A DNA stretch of 64,000 bases from Minisyncoccota bacterium (GTDB lineage Bacteria > Patescibacteriota > Minisyncoccia > Phycocordibacterales > UBA5272). Location of the stretch: NCBI GenBank assembly GCA_018063165.1, contig JAGOQU010000001.1, positions 35,809 to 99,808 on the forward strand, in the 5' to 3' direction. A program made the translations under genes and the position numbers. How positions within the stretch are numbered: position 1 is the first letter of the stretch; the number at the start of each line of letters is the position of its first letter. Shown piece after piece: positions 1,409 through 46,815 of the stretch. The notes under the pieces are model-generated. The model did not search any database. It had not been told where the DNA came from and was given only the letters and a program-made list of their open reading frames with translations.

Positions 1409-2020
1409 ATGAAAAAAATATTCTCATTGTGCTCAGTTCTCGTAGTAAGTTTTTTATTAATACCTACCACACTTTTAGCGCAAGATTCTAGTACTGTTAC
1501 TTCTGGTTTTAATAGTTTAAAGACTATGGTTGAAAGTATTACAACAGGTCTTATCACAGCTCTTGCAACTCTCTTCATGTCGCTAGCAATGCTTGCGTTC
1601 TTTTATGGTATTGTAGAGTTTATTTGGGCACAACGTTCAGGTGTAGAAAAAGATGTAACAAAGGGAAAAGAATTTATGAAGTGGAGTGTGGTAGCACTTT
1701 TTGTAATGTTTTCTATATACGGAATCATAAAGCTAGGACAAAGTGTTATTTGTGGTAGTGGTGGCTGTTCTTCTACAATTGATATACCTAGCATCAAGTT
1801 CAAAACTGGGTCTACCACAGGTGGTGGAGGCAACAATAATTCTTCACCTACACCCGCACCTGTATATACAGGTGGTGGAGGTAATAATGTTACACCAAAC
1901 TCTAGTGTAGTTAATGATTGTATGGAAGTTAGTAATTCTGTTCAATGTAATGCATCTAAGAATATATCTGGCCTTACCTGTGTTTGGCATAATAATGAAT
2001 CTTATTGTGCTGATGAGTAG
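1409..2020 (+). CDS. TrbC/VirB2-like pilin-family secreted membrane protein with a Cys-rich C-terminal tail
   Basis: Signal peptide ending LLAQ. Two TM helices separated by a charged loop (GIVEFIWAQRSGVEKDVTKGKEFMKWSVVALFVMF). Gly-rich and Cys-rich C-terminus. Paralogous in architecture to the 186-1334 protein. Confidence 0.5.
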   Translation: MKKIFSLCSVLVVSFLLIPTTLLAQDSSTVTSGFNSLKTMVESITTGLITALATLFMSLAMLAFFYGIVEFIWAQRSGVEKDVTKGKEFMKWSVVALFVMFSIYGIIKLGQSVICGSGGCSSTIDIPSIKFKTGSTTGGGGNNNSSPTPAPVYTGGGGNNVTPNSSVVNDCMEVSNSVQCNASKNISGLTCVWHNNESYCADE

Positions 2021-2116
2021 AATTATTTATGTTTGTATAATTTCGTAATATTTTTTATTGTAGAATATATTTAGAAATTTTGTATAATAGTCTAAATTTA
2101 CTATACGTAAAATAGC

Positions 2117-2144
2117 TTGACAAAAGTTATAAATAGTGTATACT
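2117..2144 (+). promoter_or_regulatory. sigma70-like promoter (TTGACA, 16-nt spacer, TATACT) upstream of the 2223 ORF
   Basis: TTGACA at 2117-2122 and TATACT at 2139-2144 in an AT-rich intergenic region about 80 nt upstream of the ATG, which has an AAGGAG RBS. Confidence 0.35.
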
Positions 2145-2222
2145 GTATACAGGTTCAGATAGTATAGAAATTTTTCTGTATTGTTTGAAATAAGTACATT
2201 CACAATTTTTAAGGAGTCAGAA

Positions 2223-3071
2223 ATGACTAATTCAGCTGATATCAAAGAGACAATTGCTGCTCGTGAAGCTATTGCGAAAGCAAAAGCTTCTGCTTCATCT
2301 GCTGCAAGTATGCCAGGTTCTATGCCTAACAAAGGCACAGTTCATCCCCAACAACCCATTGTAACCCACGTTACAACAGGAAATGGTGGTAATAAACCCC
2401 CGCATTCACCCAACAAAGGTGGAGGTGGCGGATCATCTGGAAATGGTGGTTTTGGATCTTGGTGGCAAAAACAACCTCCTTTAATTAAAGGAGTTGGTAT
2501 TGTCGTTCTGTATGGAGTTTTATCCTTTAGCCTTAATATGTTCACTATTAGCAATGGTGAACGTTCGAATAATGCTGAAATTGGTATGGCTCTTAAAGCA
2601 GCTAAAGCAGAAGCAGAAATTGCTTCTTTGAAAGAGAGTGCTGCTGTTTCAAAAGCGAGAGCTGCTGAGTTGTTAAAAAATATAGAAAAAAAAGTTGTCA
2701 CTGATACACCGGTAGGTTTACCTACAGACACAATGCCAACTTTTGATTGTCTCACCATTGAGAAAATGGAAAACAACTTTAAAACCACTAACAGTATTTC
2801 ATTGCCTTCTGGCAAACAATATTTGTTTATCAATGGGTGTGCAAAAGTTACTTTTGAGGGGGTTGTGACGAGTCTTAAAGGGAATGGTTATTGGATCTCT
2901 TTTGATTCAATAGATGACCCTAGTGCAGAATATTGCGCTTACGGTGCAAGAGGAAGAAATGACTCTCCAGATGTTTGTTTGGGTTATATAAAAAAACATC
3001 AGTACCTTGGTAAGCCTATGAACATTATTGTTCAAGGTGGAAAAGATAATTTTTTAAAAATAGGAGTTTAA
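2223..3071 (+). CDS. hypothetical single-pass membrane protein with a Gly/Pro-rich N-terminal region
   Basis: AAGGAG RBS 6 nt upstream of ATG 2223 (the track's TTG at 2181 is less likely). One central TM segment (GVGIVVLYGVLSFSLNMF). Gly-run low-complexity region. No family recognised. Confidence 0.5.
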   Translation: MTNSADIKETIAAREAIAKAKASASSAASMPGSMPNKGTVHPQQPIVTHVTTGNGGNKPPHSPNKGGGGGSSGNGGFGSWWQKQPPLIKGVGIVVLYGVLSFSLNMFTISNGERSNNAEIGMALKAAKAEAEIASLKESAAVSKARAAELLKNIEKKVVTDTPVGLPTDTMPTFDCLTIEKMENNFKTTNSISLPSGKQYLFINGCAKVTFEGVVTSLKGNGYWISFDSIDDPSAEYCAYGARGRNDSPDVCLGYIKKHQYLGKPMNIIVQGGKDNFLKIGV

Positions 3072-3072
3072 C

Positions 3073-3474
3073 ATGTCAGAAGAAGTAAAAAAATCATCAG
3101 AGAATCATGGTAATGATCATAAAACAACAGATCATGGAAAGACAGCAATTTCTCAGAAGATCTGGAAAGGTGTTACTATCATGATAAGTATCATGATAGC
3201 TGGGATTGTGGCAGTTGTTGTTGGCGGAGAACTTTTTGCCGAAATAGTTAATTCTTTTGGTCGTTCAACTGAAAGGATTTCATCAGAATTGACTGTGGCT
3301 GGAAATGTGTTCGGTAATTTTGCTGGAAGTATCAGGTCTTGGACTATGTCGATAGCAAAAATAATGAACGCTATCTTGCCAGCAATTTTAGCTGCTCTTG
3401 TTATTATACTTCTTGGGAAGTATGCTTTTGACGAGTATAAAAAGGACAAAGATGGTGGTGGTGGGCACCATTAA
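3073..3474 (+). CDS. small hypothetical membrane protein
   Basis: Starts 1 nt after the upstream stop. Two hydrophobic segments. GGGGHH C-terminus. Confidence 0.45.
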   Translation: MSEEVKKSSENHGNDHKTTDHGKTAISQKIWKGVTIMISIMIAGIVAVVVGGELFAEIVNSFGRSTERISSELTVAGNVFGNFAGSIRSWTMSIAKIMNAILPAILAALVIILLGKYAFDEYKKDKDGGGGHH

Positions 3475-5532: not shown

Positions 5533-6504
5533 ATGATTTTTTATCACTTTCTTTCAAAAAAATATAGTAGTATTTTTTATAGTGCTTGCGCGAGTCTTTT
5601 TTTGAGCTTCTCTATAGTATCAGCCGAAACAGTGTCTGGTAATGGATATACTGTAGATCAAACTATAAGTCCTATATCAGGAATCGTATCTGGTAACGGG
5701 TATACTGTTCAGACTTCTGGTCAAATTGTAGGTGGTATAGCATCTGGTAATGGATATACTTTACAAAGCGTGTTTGGTACGTCAACTGAACCAACAGTAT
5801 TACCTCCTATTGTTCCATCTGGTGGAACCACAAGTAGTGGATCTGGATATTATGTATTACCAGTTACGAGCACTTCTAGTGTTGCAACAACAAGTCCTAT
5901 TGTAGGCAAAGATACTGTTCTTACTACAAATGGTAGTACGTGTGCAACAAGAATAGCTCTTTCTTCTCCTATTGATATTGGTTTAAAGAATAATCCAGAA
6001 GATGTAAAAAAACTTGAAACCTTTTTGAATACATATGAAAAAGAAAAACTTGTCGTAGATGGTATATATGGAAAAGATGATTATCTGGCTGTAAAAAGAT
6101 GGCAGGCAAAATACAAGAATACTATTCTTGTTCCAATGAAATTAAAAAAACCAACAGGTACGATATATACATCTAGTATGCGCCAAATAGAAAGACAAAC
6201 TACAGCATCTTGTGGTCAACAAATTATTGTACACGCTTGTCCATTTTTCAAAAAAACTCTTTCATACGGAGATACTGGAGAAGAAGTTAAAAAAATACAA
6301 CAGTTTTTGAATATTGTACGAGGTGAAAAATTGCCTACAAATGGTAAATATGGCCCAGCGACACTTGCTGCCGTAAAAAGATTCCAGCGTATGTATAGAA
6401 AAGATATTGTAAGCATCGTAAAACTTTCTTTTATTTCTGGAAACTGGAACACACAAACACGTATGAAGGCTAATGCTGTTATTGGTTGTGATGTTATTAA
6501 GTAA
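5533..6504 (+). CDS. secreted repeat protein with two C-terminal peptidoglycan-binding (PG_binding_1-like) domains
   Basis: Signal-like N-terminus. Three SGNGYT(V/L) repeats. Ser/Thr-rich linker. Two copies of the PG-binding helical motif (DVKKLETFLN...DGIYGKDDYLAVKRWQ and GEEVKKIQQFLN...NGKYGPATLAAVKRFQ). Confidence 0.6.
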   Translation: MIFYHFLSKKYSSIFYSACASLFLSFSIVSAETVSGNGYTVDQTISPISGIVSGNGYTVQTSGQIVGGIASGNGYTLQSVFGTSTEPTVLPPIVPSGGTTSSGSGYYVLPVTSTSSVATTSPIVGKDTVLTTNGSTCATRIALSSPIDIGLKNNPEDVKKLETFLNTYEKEKLVVDGIYGKDDYLAVKRWQAKYKNTILVPMKLKKPTGTIYTSSMRQIERQTTASCGQQIIVHACPFFKKTLSYGDTGEEVKKIQQFLNIVRGEKLPTNGKYGPATLAAVKRFQRMYRKDIVSIVKLSFISGNWNTQTRMKANAVIGCDVIK

Positions 6505-6541
6505 AATAATACACCGTTTATAAAAGTGATATACTATTTAT

Positions 6542-6985
6542 ATGGAACAAAAACAAATAGAACATAATTCAATCTCTCAAGAAGAAAAAAATATTCTTTC
6601 AAGAAAATTAAAACAAAAAAGACTTGTAAGAATTATTATGTCTCTTTTTTCTGTTTCCATTTTTTTCTTTTTAACTACGGTATATTCTCAATATCAGGTA
6701 TATAGATTAACTAGATTAGAAGAAGTAAAAGAATCTTCTTTAACACAAGTACCTTCTACACCAAATGAGATTATTAAAGCAGTTTCAAAACTTATTATAT
6801 TACCAGATACAGTTCCACAAATAACATCTATAAAAGATATTGATTCACTGCGTGAAAAAGAAGTTTTTTTTAGAAATGCATTAAATGGGGATGCTGTAAT
6901 TATCTATGAAACAATGATTATTATATATAGACCTACAACTAATATGATTATTGCCGTGGGTGACATTGGAACTGTTTCGGAATAA
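6542..6985 (+). CDS. hypothetical membrane-anchored protein
   Basis: Single TM helix after a charged N-terminus; no family recognised. Confidence 0.4.
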   Translation: MEQKQIEHNSISQEEKNILSRKLKQKRLVRIIMSLFSVSIFFFLTTVYSQYQVYRLTRLEEVKESSLTQVPSTPNEIIKAVSKLIILPDTVPQITSIKDIDSLREKEVFFRNALNGDAVIIYETMIIIYRPTTNMIIAVGDIGTVSE

Positions 6986-7096
6986 GTCCTTTTTATATAA
7001 GAAAGGTGTTGTACACACGTGTTTATACATGACAAAATATTCACTTTATGATAGTATATAGTACAGTCTTTTAATAAAAAGATTTGTTCTAAAAGT

Positions 7097-7172
7097 GCCG
7101 CTTTAGCTCAGTTGGTAGAGCAACGGTTTTGTAAACCGTAGGTCCACAGTTCGAATCTGTGAAGCGGCTCCA
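7097..7172 (+). tRNA. tRNA-Thr (anticodon TGT), CCA encoded
   Basis: Hand-folded cloverleaf. Acceptor GCCGCTT/AAGCGGC, D-arm GCTC/GAGC, anticodon stem ACGGT/ACCGT with loop TTTGTAA, T-arm CACAG-TTCGAAT-CTGTG, 3' TCCA. Confidence 0.85.
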
Positions 7173-7215
7173 TAAATAATGGCGAGACCCTTATTTACAT
7201 CTTCTTCGTTCTTAT

Positions 7216-7908
7216 ATGATTGATACAAAAAAATATATATTAACTTTTTTAATCACATTTTCAATTTTTGTGACAGCTTTTTTTGCGTCAACTTTTTTTT
7301 CTGATAAGAGGGTTGAGAATGTTAAATCAATACAAGATACTATTGCTATTGATATTTTGTCGAGCGAAACACAGTTCGATCTTTTAAAAGAAGTTCCATG
7401 TTCAAATGTTAATGACAGCAGTCTTTCTTCAGAACTTTCGACGCTTGGAGATAAACTTTCTCATACAGAAAATGAAAGAGGGAAAGATGATGATGATGTG
7501 ATCTATCTTAAAAAATATTATTCACTTCTTCAAATTAAAGATTACATACTTTCAAAAAAACTTGTAGAAAAATGTGGAGCAGGGAAGAAGCCTGTTTTTA
7601 TCATTTATTTTTATTCAAATCAAGGAGATTGCTCTGAGTGTACACGAGAAGGGTATGTGCTTACACGCTTAAGAGAGATATACCCCGATCTTCGTATTTA
7701 TTCTTTTGATTATAATTTACCACTTTCAGCAATAGATTCTATGAAGAAGATTTATCGTATTAAAGAAAATCTTCCTGCTCTTGTTATAGAAGATGAAACA
7801 TATACAGGGTTTAAAACTCTTGAAGAATTAAGTTCTCTTTTACCTGCTACACTTAAAATGTCGACAAGTACTATTACAACCTCGACAACTACTAAGACTA
7901 AGAAATAA
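7216..7908 (+). CDS. membrane-anchored protein with a thioredoxin-like CxxC motif (CSEC)
   Basis: N-terminal TM helix. Segment KPVFIIYFYSNQGDCSECTREGY resembles a thioredoxin-fold active site. Family assignment uncertain. Confidence 0.4.
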   Translation: MIDTKKYILTFLITFSIFVTAFFASTFFSDKRVENVKSIQDTIAIDILSSETQFDLLKEVPCSNVNDSSLSSELSTLGDKLSHTENERGKDDDDVIYLKKYYSLLQIKDYILSKKLVEKCGAGKKPVFIIYFYSNQGDCSECTREGYVLTRLREIYPDLRIYSFDYNLPLSAIDSMKKIYRIKENLPALVIEDETYTGFKTLEELSSLLPATLKMSTSTITTSTTTKTKK

Positions 7909-10013: not shown

Positions 10014-10370
10014 ATGGCAGAAAGTTATAAACATTTAGAAGTTTGGAAGGATGCAGTTATATTGGCGGAGAGTATTTATTTGATTACTAAAAAGTATCCA
10101 AAAGAGGAAACTTTTAACTGTGTTACTCAGTTACGTAGAGCTGTAGTTTCGGTCTCGTCAAATATTGCTGAAGGATCAAGTAGAAAATCAAAAAAAGATT
10201 TTTCTCGTTTTATAGAAATAGCAAGAGGCTCGTTATATGAAATAGAAAGTCTTATTGAAATTAGTTTAAAATTAGAATATATTACTGTAGAGACATATAC
10301 TCATTTAACAGAAGATATAAACAAATTAGGTGGCAAATTAGGAGCGTTTTATAATTATCTACAAAAATAA
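10014..10370 (+). CDS. four-helix-bundle protein (23S rRNA intervening-sequence protein / Avd-like family)
   Basis: Characteristic sequence KHLEVWKDAVILAESIYLITKKYPKEE...QLRRAVVSVSSNIAEGSSRKSKKDFSRFIEIARGSLYEIESLIEIS. Lies between pheS and pheT. Confidence 0.8.
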   Translation: MAESYKHLEVWKDAVILAESIYLITKKYPKEETFNCVTQLRRAVVSVSSNIAEGSSRKSKKDFSRFIEIARGSLYEIESLIEISLKLEYITVETYTHLTEDINKLGGKLGAFYNYLQK

Positions 10371-10404
10371 CTTTATTCATTACTCTACTTACTACATACA
10401 CTTT

Positions 10405-12786
10405 ATGAAATTTTCAAAAAATTGGTTACAAGATTATATAGATGAGACACTTCCTTCTAATGAAGTAATTGCAGATACACTTAACAAAAAAGCGTTTGAA
10501 GTTGAAGAAGTTATTACCCTTGATGACGATACTGTTTTTGATATTAAAATACTTCCTAACCGTGCACATGACGCTCTTGGTCATCATGGTATGGCGTATG
10601 AACTTTGTTCATGTTTTGGTTTTACATTTAAGCCTGATATTCGTGATAAAGAAAATGATACTTTTTTAAATAAACATATCCCTACTGTTGTTATTAATAT
10701 TGAAAATGAAAAAGCGTGTACGAGATTTATGTCTGTGCAGATAGATGGAGTAACCGTTGGCGAAAGTCCTGTGTGGTTACGAAAAAGACTAGAAGCAATA
10801 GGTCAGCGTAGTATTAATAATATTGTTGATATTACTAACTATGTACAGTTTGCACTTAATAAGCCGATGCACGCATATGATGCAAGACGTATACAAGGTG
10901 GTTTAATTGCGCGCTTCGCGCGTGCTTCCGAGTCTCTTATGACACTAGACGATAAGTCGATCGTGCTCGATGAACAAACTCTTGTAATAGCAGATGATGA
11001 AAAGGTGCTTGGTCTTGCAGGAATAAAAGGGGGGAAGTTTAGTGGAATACAAGCAGATACTACGAGTGTTATACTTGAGAGTGCTAATTTTGATCCAGTA
11101 CTTATACGAAAGACTGCACAAAAATATAATCTTAAAACAGATGCATCGAAGCGTTTTGAAAATGGTATAGCTAATAATCTTATTGTTGAAGGTCTTCATA
11201 TGACTGCCAATCTTATACAAGAAGTTTGTAAAGAGGCAAAAAGAGGTCTTGTTACGGATGTATATCCAAAAAAAGACACCCCATACTTTGTTGGTATTTC
11301 TAAGAATGAATTAAATGCAATTCTTGGAACATCATACACAGATGAGGATATACAAAAAACACTTGTGCAACTTTCACTGCCATTTGAAATTATTATTCCA
11401 GAAACATACATTAAGGAAACGTATCCAACACTTGTAGGAGCTGGCTATAAAAACCCATCATCAATGCGAGAAGATGCGCCTAGGGTGTTTAGCTGTTCTT
11501 CGTTAATAAGTTATCTATATAAAGGTATCTGGATGCCAAGTGTCTCTATTGATAAATATGTTTTTTCAAAAAAAATCTCAAAAGAAGAATTACAATTTGG
11601 TGATCTTGTTTTTGCTAATTCAGGTGAAGGAAAAATACGTTATGAATCAGTAGAATTTTTGAGAGGTACAAAAGTGCCAGAAGGTGTTGATCATGTGGCT
11701 ATGTATATAGGTGACAATACAATATTGCACGCAACTAAAATAAAAGAAATGACACTGGTGGAGTCGTTTGAAGAGTTTGCGGCAGGTCGTACTATTGTTG
11801 GATATGGAAGGATAGTAGAAGATTTAAAAGAAGAGAGATATGTTGTTCGTGTACCGTCGGTACGTCTTGATATTCGTATAAAAGAAGATGTAGCAGAAGA
11901 GATAGGTAGAATACTTGGATATGAAAAATTAGTTCCTGTGTTACCACGTCTTAATCATGTAGGTCTTCTTCATAAGAGAATGTATTATGAAAATAAGATA
12001 CGGGAGATATTAGTTGAAAATGAGTTTTCAGAAGTTATTACGTACACATTTGGCAATGAAGGTGATGTTGCAATTGTGAAAGGGTTAGCTGATGATAAAG
12101 AAAAATTACGTAATTCACTTAGTAAAGGATTGCTTTCGTCACTGGCACTTAATCTCTATAATGCACCTCTTTTAGGACAAAAGACTATACAGCTTTTTGA
12201 GTTTGGTAATGTATTTACTATTGATCAGTATTCAGGAGATAAACGTACCAGTGTAGAAAAAAGATATTTTGGTCTTGCTATAGACGATGGAGCAAAGAAA
12301 AGTAGTTTTACAGAAAATGTTGAAATGATGCTTTCTGCAGTTAAGCGAGCTCTTGGTGTAAAAGAAATAGAGTACACTACTATTTCAGCTAAGCCGTATG
12401 TTATTGAACTTGATTTTGATACACTGATAGCACAATTACCTGAACCATCTGTATATGAAAAAGCTTCTTTCGTGTCTCTATCTCCTGTTAGTTACAAATC
12501 AGTATCGTCTTATCCGTTTATTACCCGTGATATTGCTGTGTGGGTACCTGATACTGTCACATGGGAAAGTATCTATACTATTTGCAATAAAGTGGGTAAT
12601 CCTCTTGCTCGTCGTATCGATCTTTTTGATACGTTTTCTAAGGAGATAGAAGGAGTAAAGAAAACTTCGTACGCGTTTCGTTTGGTATTCCAAAGTTATG
12701 AAAAGACACTTACTGATGAAGAAGTAAATGAGTATATGGAACCATATTATACATCTCTTAAAAAAGAAGGCTACGAAATACGATAA
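10405..12786 (+). CDS. pheT: phenylalanine--tRNA ligase beta subunit with an NlpC/P60-like insert in the B5 domain
   Basis: B3/B4 domain (HAYDARRIQGGLIARFA, GLAGIKGG). B5 domain (FVGISKNELNAILG...VRVPSVRLDI). Core (EEIGRILGYEKL). C-terminal FDX-ACB (FITRDIAVWVP...AFRLVFQS). Confidence 0.85.
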   Translation: MKFSKNWLQDYIDETLPSNEVIADTLNKKAFEVEEVITLDDDTVFDIKILPNRAHDALGHHGMAYELCSCFGFTFKPDIRDKENDTFLNKHIPTVVINIENEKACTRFMSVQIDGVTVGESPVWLRKRLEAIGQRSINNIVDITNYVQFALNKPMHAYDARRIQGGLIARFARASESLMTLDDKSIVLDEQTLVIADDEKVLGLAGIKGGKFSGIQADTTSVILESANFDPVLIRKTAQKYNLKTDASKRFENGIANNLIVEGLHMTANLIQEVCKEAKRGLVTDVYPKKDTPYFVGISKNELNAILGTSYTDEDIQKTLVQLSLPFEIIIPETYIKETYPTLVGAGYKNPSSMREDAPRVFSCSSLISYLYKGIWMPSVSIDKYVFSKKISKEELQFGDLVFANSGEGKIRYESVEFLRGTKVPEGVDHVAMYIGDNTILHATKIKEMTLVESFEEFAAGRTIVGYGRIVEDLKEERYVVRVPSVRLDIRIKEDVAEEIGRILGYEKLVPVLPRLNHVGLLHKRMYYENKIREILVENEFSEVITYTFGNEGDVAIVKGLADDKEKLRNSLSKGLLSSLALNLYNAPLLGQKTIQLFEFGNVFTIDQYSGDKRTSVEKRYFGLAIDDGAKKSSFTENVEMMLSAVKRALGVKEIEYTTISAKPYVIELDFDTLIAQLPEPSVYEKASFVSLSPVSYKSVSSYPFITRDIAVWVPDTVTWESIYTICNKVGNPLARRIDLFDTFSKEIEGVKKTSYAFRLVFQSYEKTLTDEEVNEYMEPYYTSLKKEGYEIR

Positions 12787-22614: not shown

Positions 22615-23172
22615 ATGATACCACTTTATATTTTTATTGGAATTATCGTTCTCGGTGTGATTCTTGTTGTTGGAATGTACAATGGACTTGTTACAGCTCG
22701 TATGCAAGTAAAAGAAGCATGGGCAGATATTGATGTGCAACTCAAACGTCGCTTTGATCTTATCCCTAATCTGATTAACACTATCAAAGGTGCAACTAAT
22801 TTTGAAAGTTCTACTCTTGAAAAAGTTATTGAAGCTCGTGCTAAAGCTATGCAAGCAGGTACTCCAAAAGAGCACGGTGAGGCAGAAAACGCCCTTTCAG
22901 GAACTCTTAAAAGTATTTTTGCACTTAGTGAGAGTTACCCAGATCTTAAATCAAATCAGAACTTTCTATCTCTTCAAAGTGAGCTTGCAGATACAGAAAA
23001 TAAAATACAAGCTTCTAGACGTTTCTACAATAGTAATGTTATGAACTACAATACAAAAATTCAGACAGTTCCTACAAATATTATTGCTAACATGTTTTCT
23101 TTTACTGAATCAGAATTTTTTGAACTCGCAGAAGGCGACTCTGCTAAGGAAGTTGTAGAAGTAAAATTCTAG
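22615..23172 (+). CDS. LemA family membrane protein
   Basis: N-terminal TM helix plus LemA core (LVTARMQVKEAWADIDVQLKRRFDLIPNLINTIKG). Confidence 0.8.
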   Translation: MIPLYIFIGIIVLGVILVVGMYNGLVTARMQVKEAWADIDVQLKRRFDLIPNLINTIKGATNFESSTLEKVIEARAKAMQAGTPKEHGEAENALSGTLKSIFALSESYPDLKSNQNFLSLQSELADTENKIQASRRFYNSNVMNYNTKIQTVPTNIIANMFSFTESEFFELAEGDSAKEVVEVKF

Positions 23173-23229
23173 TTTATTCTATTCTGAAGTAGAAATAAGT
23201 ATTTCTACTAGTATAGTATCTATTAAAAT

Positions 23230-24135
23230 ATGACAACTCTTTATACAAATCAGTCAACCAATGTAAAAAAAACATGGTTTCTTATGACTAGTTTTCTTGT
23301 TCTTATTATAGCAATCGGTTTCGGTCTTTCTTTTACGTATGGTAATCCATATTTTTTGTATATAGCTATTGGTATTAGTTTGATTACCAATATAGGTGCT
23401 TATTGGTTTTCTGATAAGCTTGTACTTCAAATGGCTGGTGCAAAAAAAATAGAATCAAAAGACGACTATCCTGAACTTTGGAATACCATGGAAAATCTTT
23501 GTATAACTGCAGGGCTTCCAATGCCAAAGTTGTATGTAATTGATGATCCTGCTCCAAACGCTTTTGCGACAGGTAGAGATAAAAATCATTCTGTGGTCGC
23601 TGTAACATCAGGTCTTTTACCTTTATTAACAAAATCAGAATTAGAAGGTGTGCTTGCACATGAGCTTTCTCATATTGGTAATAAAGACATGCTTATACAA
23701 ACGGTTGTTGTTGTGTTCGCAGGAATGATTTCTATTATTGCAAATATTGCACTACATATTTCTTCTGTGGGTGGTAATGAAAAAAAGAATCCTTTTCTTG
23801 TTATCCTTGGTTTTGTAGGAATCTTACTTGCTCCTATTGTTGCAACAATTATTAAACTTGCCATTTCGCGTGAGCGTGAATTTTTGGCTGACGCTACAGG
23901 CGCTCTTATTACTAGATATCCAGAAGGTCTTGCTTCAGCTCTTGAAAAGATTAGTAATTTTCATCAGCCTATGCGTATACAAAATAACACTATTGCGCAT
24001 TTGTTTATTTCTGATCCTACTGGAATTAATGATGAGACAGAAGTTAGAGAGCATGAAAAAGTTTCTTTTGTTCAAAAGTTATTCATGACACATCCTCCTG
24101 TAAAAGAGAGAGTTGCGCGATTACTGGTAAAATAG
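23230..24135 (+). CDS. htpX: zinc metalloprotease HtpX homolog (M48 family)
   Basis: Four TM segments. HELSH zinc-binding motif (LAHELSHIGNKD). C-terminal FMTHPPVKERV. Confidence 0.85.
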   Translation: MTTLYTNQSTNVKKTWFLMTSFLVLIIAIGFGLSFTYGNPYFLYIAIGISLITNIGAYWFSDKLVLQMAGAKKIESKDDYPELWNTMENLCITAGLPMPKLYVIDDPAPNAFATGRDKNHSVVAVTSGLLPLLTKSELEGVLAHELSHIGNKDMLIQTVVVVFAGMISIIANIALHISSVGGNEKKNPFLVILGFVGILLAPIVATIIKLAISREREFLADATGALITRYPEGLASALEKISNFHQPMRIQNNTIAHLFISDPTGINDETEVREHEKVSFVQKLFMTHPPVKERVARLLVK

Positions 24136-24184
24136 TTTTCTGTTTTGTAGAAGTAATACTATTTATTTGATATACTTTTTGTAT

Positions 24185-24748
24185 ATGAAAAAAATAATTA
24201 TCGGAGGAGTTATTGGTTTTGTTCTTATTATTGGTATGTGGCTCACTTCATCATATAACACCATGGTGAAGGCAAATCTCGCAGTTGATACACAGTGGGC
24301 TCAGGTAGAGACACAGTATCAGAGACGTTTTGACCTCATTCCTTCACTTGTTGGTGCGGTTAAAGGTATTATGAAGCAAGAGACAACTGTGTTTACGGCA
24401 ATTGCAGAAGCAAGACAGGGGTACGCTGGTGCAAGAACTGTTAATGAGAAAGCTGTTGCAGCAGGGCAGATGGAAAGTGCTCTTGCTAGACTTCTTGTGA
24501 TTACAGAAAATTACCCACAACTTAGATCTATAGAAGCAGTAACTAATCTACAGACGCAACTTGAAGGCACAGAGAATCGTGTTTCAGTGGAAAGAACTCG
24601 CTTTAATGATATTGTTGGTAGTTTTAATGTACAGGTAAGTACTTTTCCAGGTAATCTAATGGCAAAGATTTTTGGTTTTGAAAAACGACCTTTCTTTAAA
24701 TCTGCAGAATCTGCAGAAAAAGCTCCAGTAGTTGATTTAATTCAATAA
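24185..24748 (+). CDS. LemA family membrane protein, second copy
   Basis: Same architecture (QWAQVETQYQRRFDLIPSLVGAVKG). Start placed at MKKIIIGG. Confidence 0.8.
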   Translation: MKKIIIGGVIGFVLIIGMWLTSSYNTMVKANLAVDTQWAQVETQYQRRFDLIPSLVGAVKGIMKQETTVFTAIAEARQGYAGARTVNEKAVAAGQMESALARLLVITENYPQLRSIEAVTNLQTQLEGTENRVSVERTRFNDIVGSFNVQVSTFPGNLMAKIFGFEKRPFFKSAESAEKAPVVDLIQ

Positions 24749-24754
24749 TTATTT

Positions 24755-25645
24755 ATGAAAAAAAGAGCATTAATCAGTGCTCTCTTTTTTGTTATTCCTT
24801 TTCTTGTATATGCTTTTGATATACCTACTAGTCCAGTGGGGTATGTGAATGATTATGCACATGTTTTACAAGAAGATGTTAAACAAAAATTAGAACAAGA
24901 TTTAAGTAATTTTACCGCAAGTACAAGTAATGAAATAGCTGTAGTTATTATTCCTGAGCTTGGTTCAGATACAATAGAACATTATGCTAATACATTATTT
25001 AGCACTTGGAAAATTGGAAATGAAAAAAACGATAATGGTGTTCTTCTCCTTATTTCTATTAATGATAGAAAAGTAAGAATAGAAGTTGGTTATGGGTTAG
25101 AGGGTGCTATACCAGATATTCTTGCGAAGAATATTATAACTACAAAAATAACACCATCGTTTAAACAGGGGGATTATGCTACTGGTGTAACTCTTGCTGT
25201 TGAGGCAATAAAAGAAGCAAGTAGAGGTGAGTATACTCACATAGAAAAAAAGCCAAACTTCTTTTCTTCTGTATCTGGAAATACCATTGAAATACTTTTA
25301 GTTTTTTTATTTTTTGCTCTTCAATATTTATCATCTATTTTAGCAAGAAGTAAATCTTGGTGGGCTGGTGGTATAGTAGGGGGTGTGTTAGGCGGTGTTA
25401 TTACGTTTTTTAATATTTTTGGCACGACTTTAGCGATCAGTGGTGTTATTACAGGAATTCTTGTTATTCTCGGTCTTCTTTTTGATTATGTTGTTTCAAA
25501 CACGTATCAAAATAGAATACAAAGTGGAGGAAGTAGTTTGCCGTGGTGGATAGGTGGAGGAAATGGTTCGTCAGGTGGCAGTGATTCATTTGGAGGTTTT
25601 GGTGGAGGTGATTCAGGTGGTGGTGGTGCGAGTGGTGATTGGTAA
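24755..25645 (+). CDS. TPM domain (YgcG/MOLO-1-like) membrane protein with a Gly-rich C-terminus
   Basis: Signal peptide. TPM core (YVNDYAHVLQ...EIAVVIIPELGSDTIEHYANTLFSTWKIGNEKNDNGVLLLISINDRKVRIEVGYGLEG). TM helices, then GGG repeats. Confidence 0.75.
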   Translation: MKKRALISALFFVIPFLVYAFDIPTSPVGYVNDYAHVLQEDVKQKLEQDLSNFTASTSNEIAVVIIPELGSDTIEHYANTLFSTWKIGNEKNDNGVLLLISINDRKVRIEVGYGLEGAIPDILAKNIITTKITPSFKQGDYATGVTLAVEAIKEASRGEYTHIEKKPNFFSSVSGNTIEILLVFLFFALQYLSSILARSKSWWAGGIVGGVLGGVITFFNIFGTTLAISGVITGILVILGLLFDYVVSNTYQNRIQSGGSSLPWWIGGGNGSSGGSDSFGGFGGGDSGGGGASGDW

Positions 25646-43912: not shown

Positions 43913-43970
43913 AAAGATAGCAAGAGTCATTTATATTGCTAACTTAGATCTAACACAGTATTATATAGAT

Positions 43971-44345
43971 ATGAAAAAGATAATGATTATTGAAGATGAT
44001 AAAGAGCTCCAGGAGATGTACAAGATTAATTTTGAATTAGCTGGATATAAAGTATTTCAAGAGATGGATGGTCTTGAAGGAATATCTACAATAGTAGACA
44101 AAAAACCAGATGTTATTCTTCTTGATATTAACATGCCAAATATGGATGGATTTGAATTTTTAAAAGTAATGAAAAATAATACAAGTATTAATATACCTGT
44201 TATTGTTTGTTCAGATATGTCTGATAAAAAAACATATGATAAATCAATAGAAGCAGGAGCTATTAGTTTTTTGTTGAAAGTAGATTATTCTGGTAAAGAA
44301 CTTGTTGAAAAAGTAGACCGTATTATTAAAGGTATCGATTTATAA
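43971..44345 (+). CDS. single-domain (receiver-only) response regulator, copy 1
   Basis: CheY-like REC (MKKIMIIEDDKELQ, phospho-acceptor D in ILLDINMPNMDG). No output domain. Start at the internal ATG of the track ORF. Confidence 0.8.
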   Translation: MKKIMIIEDDKELQEMYKINFELAGYKVFQEMDGLEGISTIVDKKPDVILLDINMPNMDGFEFLKVMKNNTSINIPVIVCSDMSDKKTYDKSIEAGAISFLLKVDYSGKELVEKVDRIIKGIDL

Positions 44346-44365
44346 AAAAGTTTATCTTTATTGAT

Positions 44366-44740
44366 ATGAAAAAAATAATGATTATCGAAGACGATAAAGA
44401 TCTTCAAGAAATATATAAAATTAATTTTGAGATGGTTGGGTATGAAGTAATGCAAGAATTTGATGGTTTAGATGGTATAGCAAGTGTAGTAGACAAAAAA
44501 CCAGATGCAATTCTGCTTGATATTAACATGCCAAATATGGATGGTTTTGCTTTCTTAAATGCTATAAATGATAATACAAGTATTAATATTCCAGTAATTG
44601 TATGTTCTAATCTCTCTGACCAAGAAACACAAAATAAAGCATTATCCTCAGGTGCTGCAGGTGTTTTGGTTAAAGTTGATTATTCCGGCAAGCAATTAGT
44701 TGAGAAAGTTGGTCATATTTTAAATGGTATTGCTGTATAA
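44366..44740 (+). CDS. single-domain (receiver-only) response regulator, copy 2
   Basis: About two-thirds identical to copy 1 over 124 aa. Confidence 0.8.
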   Translation: MKKIMIIEDDKDLQEIYKINFEMVGYEVMQEFDGLDGIASVVDKKPDAILLDINMPNMDGFAFLNAINDNTSINIPVIVCSNLSDQETQNKALSSGAAGVLVKVDYSGKQLVEKVGHILNGIAV

Positions 44741-44850
44741 TTTTTTGTTACTCACAGATATTTTTTGATATATAGAGGTATACTATACGTATCTGCATGA
44801 TACTTTGTACTATTATGTATTTTTAGAAAAGCTACTTATTATTTATTACT

Positions 44851-46419
44851 ATGGATATACTTGATTTTTTTTCTGGAATGCAATTTGATTTAATAGGTGT
44901 TTTGGTTGCTGTGACAGGTATTGGTGTTTTGGCAGGAATAGTTTTTTTTAGAAGTAAAAGTAGTATAACAAGTAGGTCTTTCTTTTTTTTCTCCTTTATT
45001 ACTATATTTTGGGGTCTTTCTAATTATTTTTTATATAAGTTTACAGATCAGAACTTAATTGTTCTTGCACTTCGTATTCATATATTTTTAACTATATGGC
45101 ATTCATATTCTTTCTTTCAGCTTGCTTATGTATTTCCTGATGAAAAAAAGGATTTACCTATTTGGCATAGATATGTTTTGTTGCCTGTTGCATTTTTTAC
45201 ATCAGCTCTTCTACTTATTCCTTTTGTTTTTACAAAAGTTAGTCACCTTGTTTCACTGTCAGAAATTACAGATCCAACCAAAAGTGATGGGATTATTTTA
45301 GGAGGAATACTCACATTCAGTTTCCTTATTTCTGGTCTCGATGTACTGTATCGCAAAATTGACCTTTCAAAAGGTGATCAAAGAAGACAGCTTATACTTA
45401 TGTTCACCGGAATGTCTCTTACTGCCGGATTGTTACTTTTGTTTAGTTTTGTACTTCCTATTGGTTTTCATAATTATGATTTCGTACCATTTGGAGCACT
45501 TTTTATTTTTCCTGTTATCGTGTTTACGGCATATGCAATTTATATTGTAGAATTGTTCCATGTAAAAAATATTTTTGCTGGAATTTTTACATTTTTTCTC
45601 TGTGTTTTTTCTTTAGTAGAATTGATTATTTCAGATAACATTGAACAACTTCTTCTTAGGATATTAGTGTTTATACTTACTCTTGTGCTTAGTATACAGC
45701 TAGTAAGAAATACTTTTGAAATAGAATTGGCTAATGAACAGAAGTCAGAACTTATGACATTTGCTACGCATGAGATAAGAACACCAATTACTGTCATGCG
45801 TGGGTACGCATCTATATTACTTGATGGTGATAAAGGGCCAATTACTCCACCTGTTGTTGACTTACTTCAGAAGATTATGATTTCAGGAAATGAAGTGATT
45901 TCTCTTCTTTCTCAATATTTAAATAAATCAAAAATTGAATTGGGTCAACTCCAATATGTTTTTTTGAAAGTTGATGTTGTTCAACTTGTGAATGAAGTTC
46001 TTGGTACATTTCAGGTTAACGCTCAGCAGAAAAATCTATATTTAACAGAAGTTCTTCCTACACGAGAAAAGATTTTTATTAATGCTGATCAGGGTAAATT
46101 AAAAGAAGTTATTATTAATTTGATTGATAATTCTATAAAATACACACAAAAAGGTTCTGTTAGTGTCTCAGTAGAAAAACATAATACAAAAGTTATTATA
46201 AAAGTATCAGATACTGGTGTTGGTATAGAAGAAGATACAATGAAAATTCTTTTTAGAGAATTTTCTCGAGCAGATATACAAAAAGTTAATATTTTGGGAA
46301 CAGGGCTTGGACTTTATTTAGCTAAAATATTTGTCACAGCTCATTCGGGTAGAATATGGGCTGAGTCAGAAGGAAAAGGTAATGGAGCTCAATTTTATAT
46401 TGAATTACCTGAAGCATAA
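44851..46419 (+). CDS. sensor histidine kinase with an N-terminal polytopic (about 7 TM) membrane sensor region
   Basis: HisKA (FATHEIRTPITVMRGYASIL) and HATPase_c (LIDNSIKYT, SDTGVGI, GTGLGLYLAKIF). Confidence 0.8.
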   Translation: MDILDFFSGMQFDLIGVLVAVTGIGVLAGIVFFRSKSSITSRSFFFFSFITIFWGLSNYFLYKFTDQNLIVLALRIHIFLTIWHSYSFFQLAYVFPDEKKDLPIWHRYVLLPVAFFTSALLLIPFVFTKVSHLVSLSEITDPTKSDGIILGGILTFSFLISGLDVLYRKIDLSKGDQRRQLILMFTGMSLTAGLLLLFSFVLPIGFHNYDFVPFGALFIFPVIVFTAYAIYIVELFHVKNIFAGIFTFFLCVFSLVELIISDNIEQLLLRILVFILTLVLSIQLVRNTFEIELANEQKSELMTFATHEIRTPITVMRGYASILLDGDKGPITPPVVDLLQKIMISGNEVISLLSQYLNKSKIELGQLQYVFLKVDVVQLVNEVLGTFQVNAQQKNLYLTEVLPTREKIFINADQGKLKEVIINLIDNSIKYTQKGSVSVSVEKHNTKVIIKVSDTGVGIEEDTMKILFREFSRADIQKVNILGTGLGLYLAKIFVTAHSGRIWAESEGKGNGAQFYIELPEA

Positions 46420-46437
46420 TTATTTTTATTTGTCTGT

Positions 46438-46815
46438 ATGAAAAAAATAATGATTATAGAAGATAATAAAGATATACAAAATATATATAAACATAGTTTT
46501 GAAAAAGCTGGGTATGAAGTTATTATTGAAGATAATGGATTAGAAGGGATCAATAATGTTGTTCAAAAAATGCCAGATGTTATTTTGCTTGACCTTATGA
46601 TGCCTAAAATGGATGGATTTGAATTTTTAAAATTAATGAAGCAAAATTCTACACTGAATATTCCTGTTATCGTGTGTTCAAACATATCTGATAACGAAAT
46701 ATATGCAAAAGTTATGGATTTTGGCGCTGCTGCTATAATTTTAAAAGTAGACTATTCTGGAAAACAACTTGTTGAAAAGGTTGAATATATTATGAAAGAT
46801 TTACATAAAATCTAG
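46438..46815 (+). CDS. single-domain (receiver-only) response regulator, copy 3
   Basis: Paralog of copies 1 and 2 (MKKIMIIEDNKDIQ, LLDLMMPKMDG). Confidence 0.8.
   Translation: MKKIMIIEDNKDIQNIYKHSFEKAGYEVIIEDNGLEGINNVVQKMPDVILLDLMMPKMDGFEFLKLMKQNSTLNIPVIVCSNISDNEIYAKVMDFGAAAIILKVDYSGKQLVEKVEYIMKDLHKI

Follow-up and report, generated by a model that had tools for sequence, protein, structure and literature searches.

Here we analyse a 64 kb stretch of the genome of a Minisyncoccota bacterium (64,000 nucleotides (nt) of contig JAGOQU010000001.1, hereafter the window; AT-rich, with a G+C content of 30-35%), and in particular a signalling locus in which a single histidine kinase (HK) lies among three receiver-only response regulators (REC1, REC2 and REC3). 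An earlier reading made from the letters alone (the sequence-only reading) had proposed three regulators of 124/124/125 amino acids (aa) around one kinase, and the open reading frames (ORFs) were found exactly where it had placed them, all on the forward strand:

43971-44345, + strand: REC1, receiver-only response regulator of 124 aa, acceptor D52 at 44124-44126; up type, the more diverged copy
44366-44740, + strand: REC2, receiver-only response regulator of 124 aa, D52 at 44519-44521; up type, the more conservative copy
44851-46419, + strand: HK, histidine kinase of 522 aa with HisKA and HATPase_c domains
46438-46815, + strand: REC3, receiver-only response regulator of 125 aa, D52 at 46591-46593; down type, starting 18 nt past the HK stop codon

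The up and down types are the two receiver clades described further below. Response_reg is the sole Pfam domain in REC1 (E 5e-22), REC2 (7e-21) and REC3 (3e-22), with scores of 75-79 bits against a cut-off of 30.2, and no C-terminal winged-helix Trans_reg_C domain was detected by Pfam in any of the three. Protein identity amounts to 69% between REC1 and REC2, 61% between REC1 and REC3 and 60% between REC2 and REC3, in agreement with the 60-70% estimated earlier. Residues E8, D9, D52, S81 and K103, the full phospho-acceptor set, are invariant in REC1-REC3 and in 51 family members, which bears out the acidic pocket and the acceptor aspartate that the sequence-only reading saw retained. It was also right that an output domain is absent, and this extends to the close homologues: at least 120 homologues of REC3 were listed, and all of these are receiver-only, 120-153 aa long and from the same bacterial group. 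The family is therefore lineage-specific and uncharacterised, though of a known kind. The receivers resemble those of the OmpR/PhoB family (PhoB model 67 bits versus a cut-off of 296; PDB entry 1nxo, E 9e-18), but the chains stop directly behind alpha5. All family members, up and down, carry K-V-(D/N)-Y-S-G-K after beta5 (residues 103-109), which replaces the near-universal K-P.

The kinase consists of two parts:

44851-45720, + strand: HK residues 1-290, membrane sensor region with nine predicted transmembrane helices
45721-46419, + strand: HK residues 291-522, DHp domain (H307 at 45769-45771, in the HEIRTP box) and catalytic ATP-binding domain

HisKA is matched with 40.1 bits (cut-off 26.9, E 4e-10) and HATPase_c with 84.3 bits (E 1e-23). 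Across 46 HK homologues H307, E308, N423, N427, D454-G456-G458, F468 and G483-G485-G487 are invariant, covering the N, G1, F and G2 boxes. By its domains and boxes HK is a class I HisKA sensor kinase. An AlphaFold2 model (mean pLDDT 76) places helices at 12-34, 39-63, 67-94, 104-120, 146-172, 176-206, 209-231, 238-260 and 264-324, the ninth of which is modelled as running unbroken into the DHp helix that carries H307. Hydropathy agrees with the modelled helices, every predicted loop has at most 21 residues, and the sensor region contains no HAMP, PAS or extracytoplasmic domain. The large polytopic N-terminal sensor of the sequence-only reading is thereby specified as nine predicted helices; its suggestion of a 7TMR-DISM sensor did not hold, since no 7TMR-DISM Pfam match was obtained for any of the 46 members, and HisKA_7TM (PF16927) is preferred. 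HK itself matches HisKA_7TM weakly over residues 18-237 (24.9 bits versus a cut-off of 28.6, E 2e-5), and 44 of the 46 members match at E-values up to 1e-3, the best being 1.3e-14. Membership therefore holds at the level of the family, and HK has two helices beyond the seven. A fold search with the full model against the PDB returned kinase cores only (HK853, RetS, WalK) and was uninformative on the membrane domain. Most likely the nine-helix domain, fused to the DHp domain, senses a cue in or at the membrane. HK would then autophosphorylate on H307 and, by means of the HExxT phosphatase motif in HEIRTP, could act as a phosphatase as well.

The order REC-REC-HK-REC is found elsewhere, namely in the metagenome-assembled genome GCA_017992935.1, whose kinase is identical to HK and which is labelled Candidatus Pacebacteria, in L041, an independent Logan assembly (SRR12762274), and in L030, another species with an HK that is 91% identical (L-numbers, L003-L044, are labels of fetched related loci). 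Relatives are labelled Paceibacterota, Parcubacteria or Patescibacteria. The sequence-only reading had allowed that two of the three copies might be assembly duplications. That option is excluded, as the same layout is seen again in independent assemblies and another species, and the DNA of REC1 and REC2 is no more than 76% identical. Nor are the genes pseudogenes: ratios of nonsynonymous to synonymous substitution rates (dN/dS) against L030 are 0.029 for REC1, 0.045 for REC2, 0.053 for REC3 and 0.052 for HK, at dS of about 0.8-1.2, comparable to the values for RNase R and S16. Strong purifying selection acts on all four genes. Identity to the L030 orthologues is 97% for REC1, 93.5% for REC2 and 91% for HK, which makes REC1 the tightest-conserved of the four genes since the duplication.

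Partner genes were sought in the window by Pfam on all plausible coding ORFs of 100 aa or more, or by the Pfam annotation of matching contigs. As the sequence-only reading had it for the neighbourhood, neither the window nor about 30 related loci contain che genes (CheA, CheW, MCP) or a DNA-binding or winged-helix regulator, and the same holds for Hpt and Spo0B-like proteins. In the six frames of the window a profile search revealed no REC domain beyond these three and no second histidine kinase. Rfam yielded tRNAs only, and a terminator scan found none at the locus. The receivers might be ordinary CheY paralogues that belong to a chemotaxis or flagellar system elsewhere in the genome, and some source annotations indeed name homologues "CheY-like chemotaxis protein". 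The adjacent kinase, however, is a HisKA transmembrane kinase and not CheA, no chemotaxis partner accompanies it, and no NCBIfam CheY model attains its cut-off with these receivers. We give this explanation, together with that of an artefact, next to no weight. With no che gene, Hpt protein or DNA-binding regulator nearby, output by protein-protein contact, as had been put forward, is a sensible reading.

The history of the layout was studied over about 25 related loci, with HK identities of 66-91%, in which four layouts occur:

RNase R, a gene of about 1 kb, HK', REC(up), HK, REC(down), rpsP: the commonest layout, in L003, L005, L008-L010, L012-L016, L018-L020, L022-L024 and L032
REC(up), HK, REC(down), without HK' and the gene of about 1 kb: L011, L017, L021 and L033
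two copies of REC(up), HK, REC(down): the window and L030
HK, REC(down) only, without HK' and REC(up): L004, L006 and L007

With 530-565 aa and an identity of 31-39% to HK, HK' is a full-length paralogue; its H-box, HQLRSP, lacks the E and T of the HExxT motif. The sole constant unit is HK with a down-type receiver, present in every related locus with sequence reaching past the kinase. HK' and REC(up) are separated by -1 to 151 nt and HK and REC(down) by 7-78 nt, against 40-293 nt between REC(up) and HK; such spacing fits two kinase-then-receiver pairs. HK' is missing from the window, L030, L033, L011, L017 and L021, where the up-type receiver is still there. It was lost at least twice independently with the up-type receiver staying beside HK. 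The layout with one kinase and three receivers is thus derived: HK' was lost, and the up receiver was duplicated in the lineage of the window and L030. The sequence-only reading took the locus for three near-identical receivers of a single cognate kinase. The history is a different one, with two old receiver types, a usual cassette of HK'-REC(up)-HK-REC(down), and REC3 as the only constant partner.

Some further features of these kinases were noticed. In L031 HK' is broken into ORFs of 182 aa and 320 aa (5773-7394), and in L032, whose HK is identical, it is an intact gene of 540 aa (1516-3138); the split reflects either decay under way in the population or a sequencing error. Between the last membrane helix and the H-box (residues ~290-300, window 45718-45750) HK lacks exactly seven residues, one heptad, which reads LKSLDKL in the HK' of L003-L024. 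L037, L038, L039 and L044 hold more distant orphan HisKA_7TM kinases (42-45% identical, with the kinase at about 6001 or 8001) in the context DnaK-DnaJ ... ThiF-like gene, unannotated gene of about 500 aa, nitroreductase-like gene, orphan kinase, class I tRNA synthetase. The nitroreductase-like gene and the start of the orphan kinase share 4 nt in all four loci but L044, where a gap of 29 nt separates them, and the ThiF-like and nitroreductase-like pair recalls azoline-peptide maturation genes.

A neighbour-joining tree of 47-54 receivers separates two clades, up (bootstrap 98) and down (bootstrap 78), with REC1 and REC2 in the former and REC3 in the latter. The check by phylogeny that the sequence-only reading called for thus places REC1 and REC2 in one old type and REC3 in the other. 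Sequence marks are EDNK, HSFEK and CSNISD for the down type (REC3), and EDDK, INFE and CSNLSD or CSDMSD for the up type (REC1 and REC2). Few positions differ in a fixed manner between the types, namely position 10 (D/N), position 20 in alpha1 (N/S) and position 83 (L/I). REC2 is 78-80% identical to the lone up-type receivers of L003 and L005. Compared with their nearest single-copy relatives, REC1 and REC2 have the derived residues I19, I53, N54, I78, E113 and V115 in common. These six shared residues indicate sister copies that arose by duplication in an ancestor shared by the window organism and L030. An older duplication, since the tree sets REC1 outside the close up-type group, was rejected on the same six residues; the position of REC1 is more likely the long-branch placement of a faster copy, and gene conversion could mimic shared residues. 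From the close up-type consensus REC1 departs at 30 positions, mainly in alpha3, alpha4, beta5 and alpha5, and REC2 at 21. The differences between the two copies likewise lie chiefly in alpha3, alpha4, beta5 and alpha5, which usually form the output or dimerisation face, and alpha1 shows only four conservative changes. REC1 and REC2 probably have split targets or opposing roles.

Two candidate transcription signals were located:

43936-43964, + strand: putative sigma-70-like promoter before REC1, TTGCTA (43936-43941), 17 nt, TATTAT (43959-43964), scoring 9/12 in a consensus scan
44747-44784, + strand: conserved cis element before HK, GTTACTCACA (44747-44756), 22 nt, -10-like TATACT (44779-44784)

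The -10 box of the first ends 7 nt before the REC1 start codon (ATG at 43971), so close that the REC1 mRNA would be leaderless or nearly so. TTGCxx-N17-TATxAT is also found directly before the up-type receiver in five other loci without HK' (L030, L033, L011, L017 and L021). In relatives a TATACT box lies 7-9 nt before the HK' start codon. As for the second, the pattern GTTAC[AT]CACA, 21-22 nt, TATA[CA]T has 27 exact copies in 531 kb (window and loci), all on the + strand and all in the spacer before HK, and it is kept in about 20 species (window, L003-L024, L030-L033); a rough estimate from composition gives about two copies expected by chance. GTTAC[AT]CACA occurs in the window as one exact copy, and copies with one mismatch are at chance level. 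No conserved -35 box stands at the usual 17 nt spacing before HK. The 10-mer looks like an activator or operator site, placed where it would overlap the missing -35. Conservation of the element led us to take HK-REC3 as a transcription unit of its own under specific control, and REC1-REC2 and HK-REC3 appear to have separate promoters. REC3 would be the constant partner, probably co-transcribed with HK from a dedicated promoter that the 10-mer marks.

An operator-like 10-mer implies that some DNA-binding factor acts on the operon, and such a factor might be the end of a phosphorelay of the Spo0F type, in which HK would pass phosphate to a receiver, then to an Hpt or Spo0B-like protein, and finally to a terminal DNA-binding regulator. 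In known relays the first acceptor is a receiver-only protein, and the sequence matches include Spo0F (E 2e-14). A phosphorelay was among the options of the sequence-only reading, and it is left without support by the lack of any Hpt protein or output-bearing regulator in the window and the related loci. We hold it to be very improbable.

Candidate residues of kinase-receiver specificity are named in the titles of PDB entries 4jas and 4jav; mapping them through sequence alignments gives for each protein the following putative set:

HK at HK853 positions 268, 271, 275, 294 and 297: V-G-I/M-K-I
HK' at HK853 positions 268, 271, 275, 294 and 297: V-G-T-H-T
REC1 at RR468 positions 13, 14, 17 and 21: E-L-M-N
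REC2 at RR468 positions 13, 14, 17 and 21: D-L-I-N
REC3 at RR468 positions 13, 14, 17 and 21: D-I-I-S

The near-alike residues of REC1-REC3 make cross-phosphorylation plausible as far as sequence can tell. Alpha1 of the up type, the kinase-docking helix, is the same in loci with and without HK', so that retention after HK' loss required no rewiring. A shift of docking residues in up receivers of the species lacking HK' was looked for, and no consistent one was seen. Co-change of HK position 322 (I/M) with down-receiver position 13 (I/L) is a single phylogenetic event with L020 as an exception, and was set aside as too weak.

We lean, somewhat more than evenly, towards a working two-component module with receiver-only output in which HK partners REC3 and also feeds REC1 and REC2, a one-to-many arrangement. 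After the loss of HK', HK would have come to phosphorylate the two up-type receivers as well, since the up receiver was kept beside HK, under constraint, after at least two losses of HK' and with its docking helix unchanged. Once phosphorylated, the receivers would bind other proteins.

Several observations weigh against this reading. In L004, L006 and L007 the up-type receiver is gone along with HK', as a dependence of the up type on HK' would predict. At three of the five DHp specificity positions HK and HK' carry different residues, and a consistent difference separates up from down receivers at alpha1 position 20 (N/S) and at position 10; these are signs of two insulated pairs, and HK may serve the up type poorly. 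Orphan HisKA_7TM paralogues are found elsewhere in Paceibacteria genomes, so another kinase outside the 64 kb window could serve REC1 and REC2. Finally, the link to pili taken up below stems from one rearrangement common to three related species, which makes pilus adjacency only a lead.

Most of these points favour an alternative in which only REC3 pairs with HK, and REC1 and REC2 are orphans fed by a kinase elsewhere, either a relocated HK' or a HisKA_7TM paralogue, with the layout reflecting adjacency only. This alternative draws further on the two kinase-then-receiver pairs with short gaps in the cassettes of relatives, on the separate promoter-like elements of REC1-REC2 and HK-REC3, and on how common orphan kinases of the same family are in Paceibacteria. 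It is at odds with the repeated loss of HK' while the up receiver stayed beside HK under strong purifying selection, and with the absence of a second kinase from the window; candidate-phylum genomes are moreover kinase-poor, with about 0.29 kinases per 100 genes (PMC10805038). We consider it possible, but on balance improbable.

At the position two past the acceptor Asp, REC1 and REC2 carry N in place of M (LLDVMMP to LLDINMP). The residue at this position tunes the stability of the phosphoryl group in receivers. The change could therefore be read in favour of a phosphate sink, in which one or two receivers without a target would drain phosphate from HK and so set the threshold and duration of the signal of the output receiver. 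The presence of several receiver-only proteins beside one bifunctional (HExxT) kinase is in keeping with this, and such sinks are documented (PMC4214558, PMC11181946). REC1 and REC2 are, however, kept tighter against L030 than HK itself, and their differences lie on the output face. Such tight, copy-specific conservation fits specific partners better than passive sinks, and we regard a sink as quite improbable.

As to the partners of the phosphorylated receivers, a clue comes from L004, L006 and L007, where a divergent operon beside HK (L004 1811-5783, minus strand, upstream of HK) replaces HK' and the up receiver. Its products are a distinct receiver-only protein (about 35% identical), a PilB-like T2SSE ATPase with MshEN, a PilC-like T2SSF platform protein and a prepilin-like protein. 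In Pseudomonas and Synechocystis, too, pilus motors are controlled by receiver-only proteins (PMC10519157, PMC11181946). Our best guess for the target is the type IV pilus motor, albeit a tentative and rather unlikely one. In a broader picture, the clade would signal wholly via the receiver-only KVDYSGK family, which lacks K-P, driven by nine-helix kinases; the surviving HK would have taken over an orphaned receiver, which then duplicated and split its output face; and the phosphorylated receivers would act directly on the type IV pilus motor with which these episymbionts reach hosts, and might also act via a DNA-binding partner at GTTAC[AT]CACA, closing an autoregulatory loop with no classical DNA-binding response regulator involved. 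We think this combination quite unlikely.

If HK did take over an orphaned receiver, the locus would record a two-component rewiring that took place in nature and can be dated. The series of layouts, from two kinases with two receivers through one with two and one with three to one with one beside pilus genes, could be used to study how partner specificity changes after kinase loss. The module is also a compact and conserved test case of a kinase without an extracellular sensor and receivers without an output domain. To our knowledge no candidate-phylum signalling module has been characterised so far, and a literature search found no paper on this locus or family. Given the low density of kinases quoted above, the module is probably among very few in its genome. 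Few signalling genes in candidate-phylum bacteria also imply that each module probably controls something central to host-dependent life. Published work notes the scarcity of kinases in candidate-phylum genomes and an enrichment of CheY-like genes in sediment-attached genomes (PMC10805038, PMC9938205).

The locus is set among housekeeping genes, with undecaprenyl-diphosphatase, an SMC-like ATPase and RNase R upstream, and rpsP, a KH protein, trmD, a NUDIX protein, MgsA, RF-1 and FtsEX downstream. The remaining genes of the window include ribosomal protein S2, EF-Ts, PheST, Mur ligases, GyrB, ThrRS, LemA/TPM/M48 proteins and unknowns. Four other features were observed in the window:

186-1334: protein of 382 aa with a weak T4SS_pilin match (28 bits)
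10014-12786: phenylalanyl-tRNA synthetase beta subunit (793 aa) bearing a precomputed NLPC_P60 peptidase Pfam match
10014-12786: small 23S_rRNA_IVP / bAvd-like gene between pheS and pheT
22615-25645: cluster of LemA, M48 peptidase, LemA and TPM-domain genes

The closest solved system is HK853-RR468 of Thermotoga maritima (PDB 3dge and related entries), which, like the locus described here, has a class I HisKA/HATPase kinase whose partner is a receiver-only regulator of about 120 aa. Among solved structures it gives the best or near-best match for both proteins (HK E 4e-28, Foldseek E 2e-12; receiver E 3e-17), and RR468 is among the best matches of REC3. HK853 and HK have the same HExxT phosphatase motif, and identity to this system is only about 28-35%. 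The sensor of HK853 is a simple periplasmic one with two helices, whereas HK has a nine-helix membrane domain; HK853 has one receiver, whereas here there are two types and a duplication; and RR468, like most receivers, has K-P after beta5 where REC1-REC3 have K-V.

Several receiver-only proteins on one kinase, antagonistic or acting as sinks, with output by protein contact as proposed here and often to the type IV pilus motor, are known from ChpA-PilG/PilH, PixL-PixG/PixH and CheA-CheY1/CheY2 (PMC10519157, PMC11181946). Their kinases are of the CheA type with Hpt and CheW domains and chemoreceptors, none of which are present here, and in the window itself no pilus link is visible. DivK (with DivJ/PleC), MrrA and LovR (with LovK) pair HisKA kinases with stand-alone receivers, as here, and serve as hubs, switches or sinks by protein contact (PMC5964349). 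DivK is among the sequence matches (E 5e-11), but the NCBIfam models DivK-like (63 versus 160 bits) and CpdR (51 versus 180 bits) stay far under their cut-offs. These alphaproteobacterial single-domain regulators come from an unrelated lineage with unrelated partners, and no targets of the DivL/CckA type are known here.

The locus also recalls archaeal systems (Galperin et al. 2018, PMC5847659), in which HisKA_7TM kinases also occur, receiver-only proteins are the main output and no OmpR/NarL-type regulators are nearby, whereas the present organism is bacterial (Patescibacteria). Among response regulators, stand-alone receivers form one of the largest classes and dominate in archaea (PMC5847659), and their use in one-to-many branching and as hubs and sinks is well established (PMC5964349, PMC4214558). 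The type of system is a familiar one: receiver-only regulators with HisKA kinases and one-to-many branching are textbook variants of two-component signalling.

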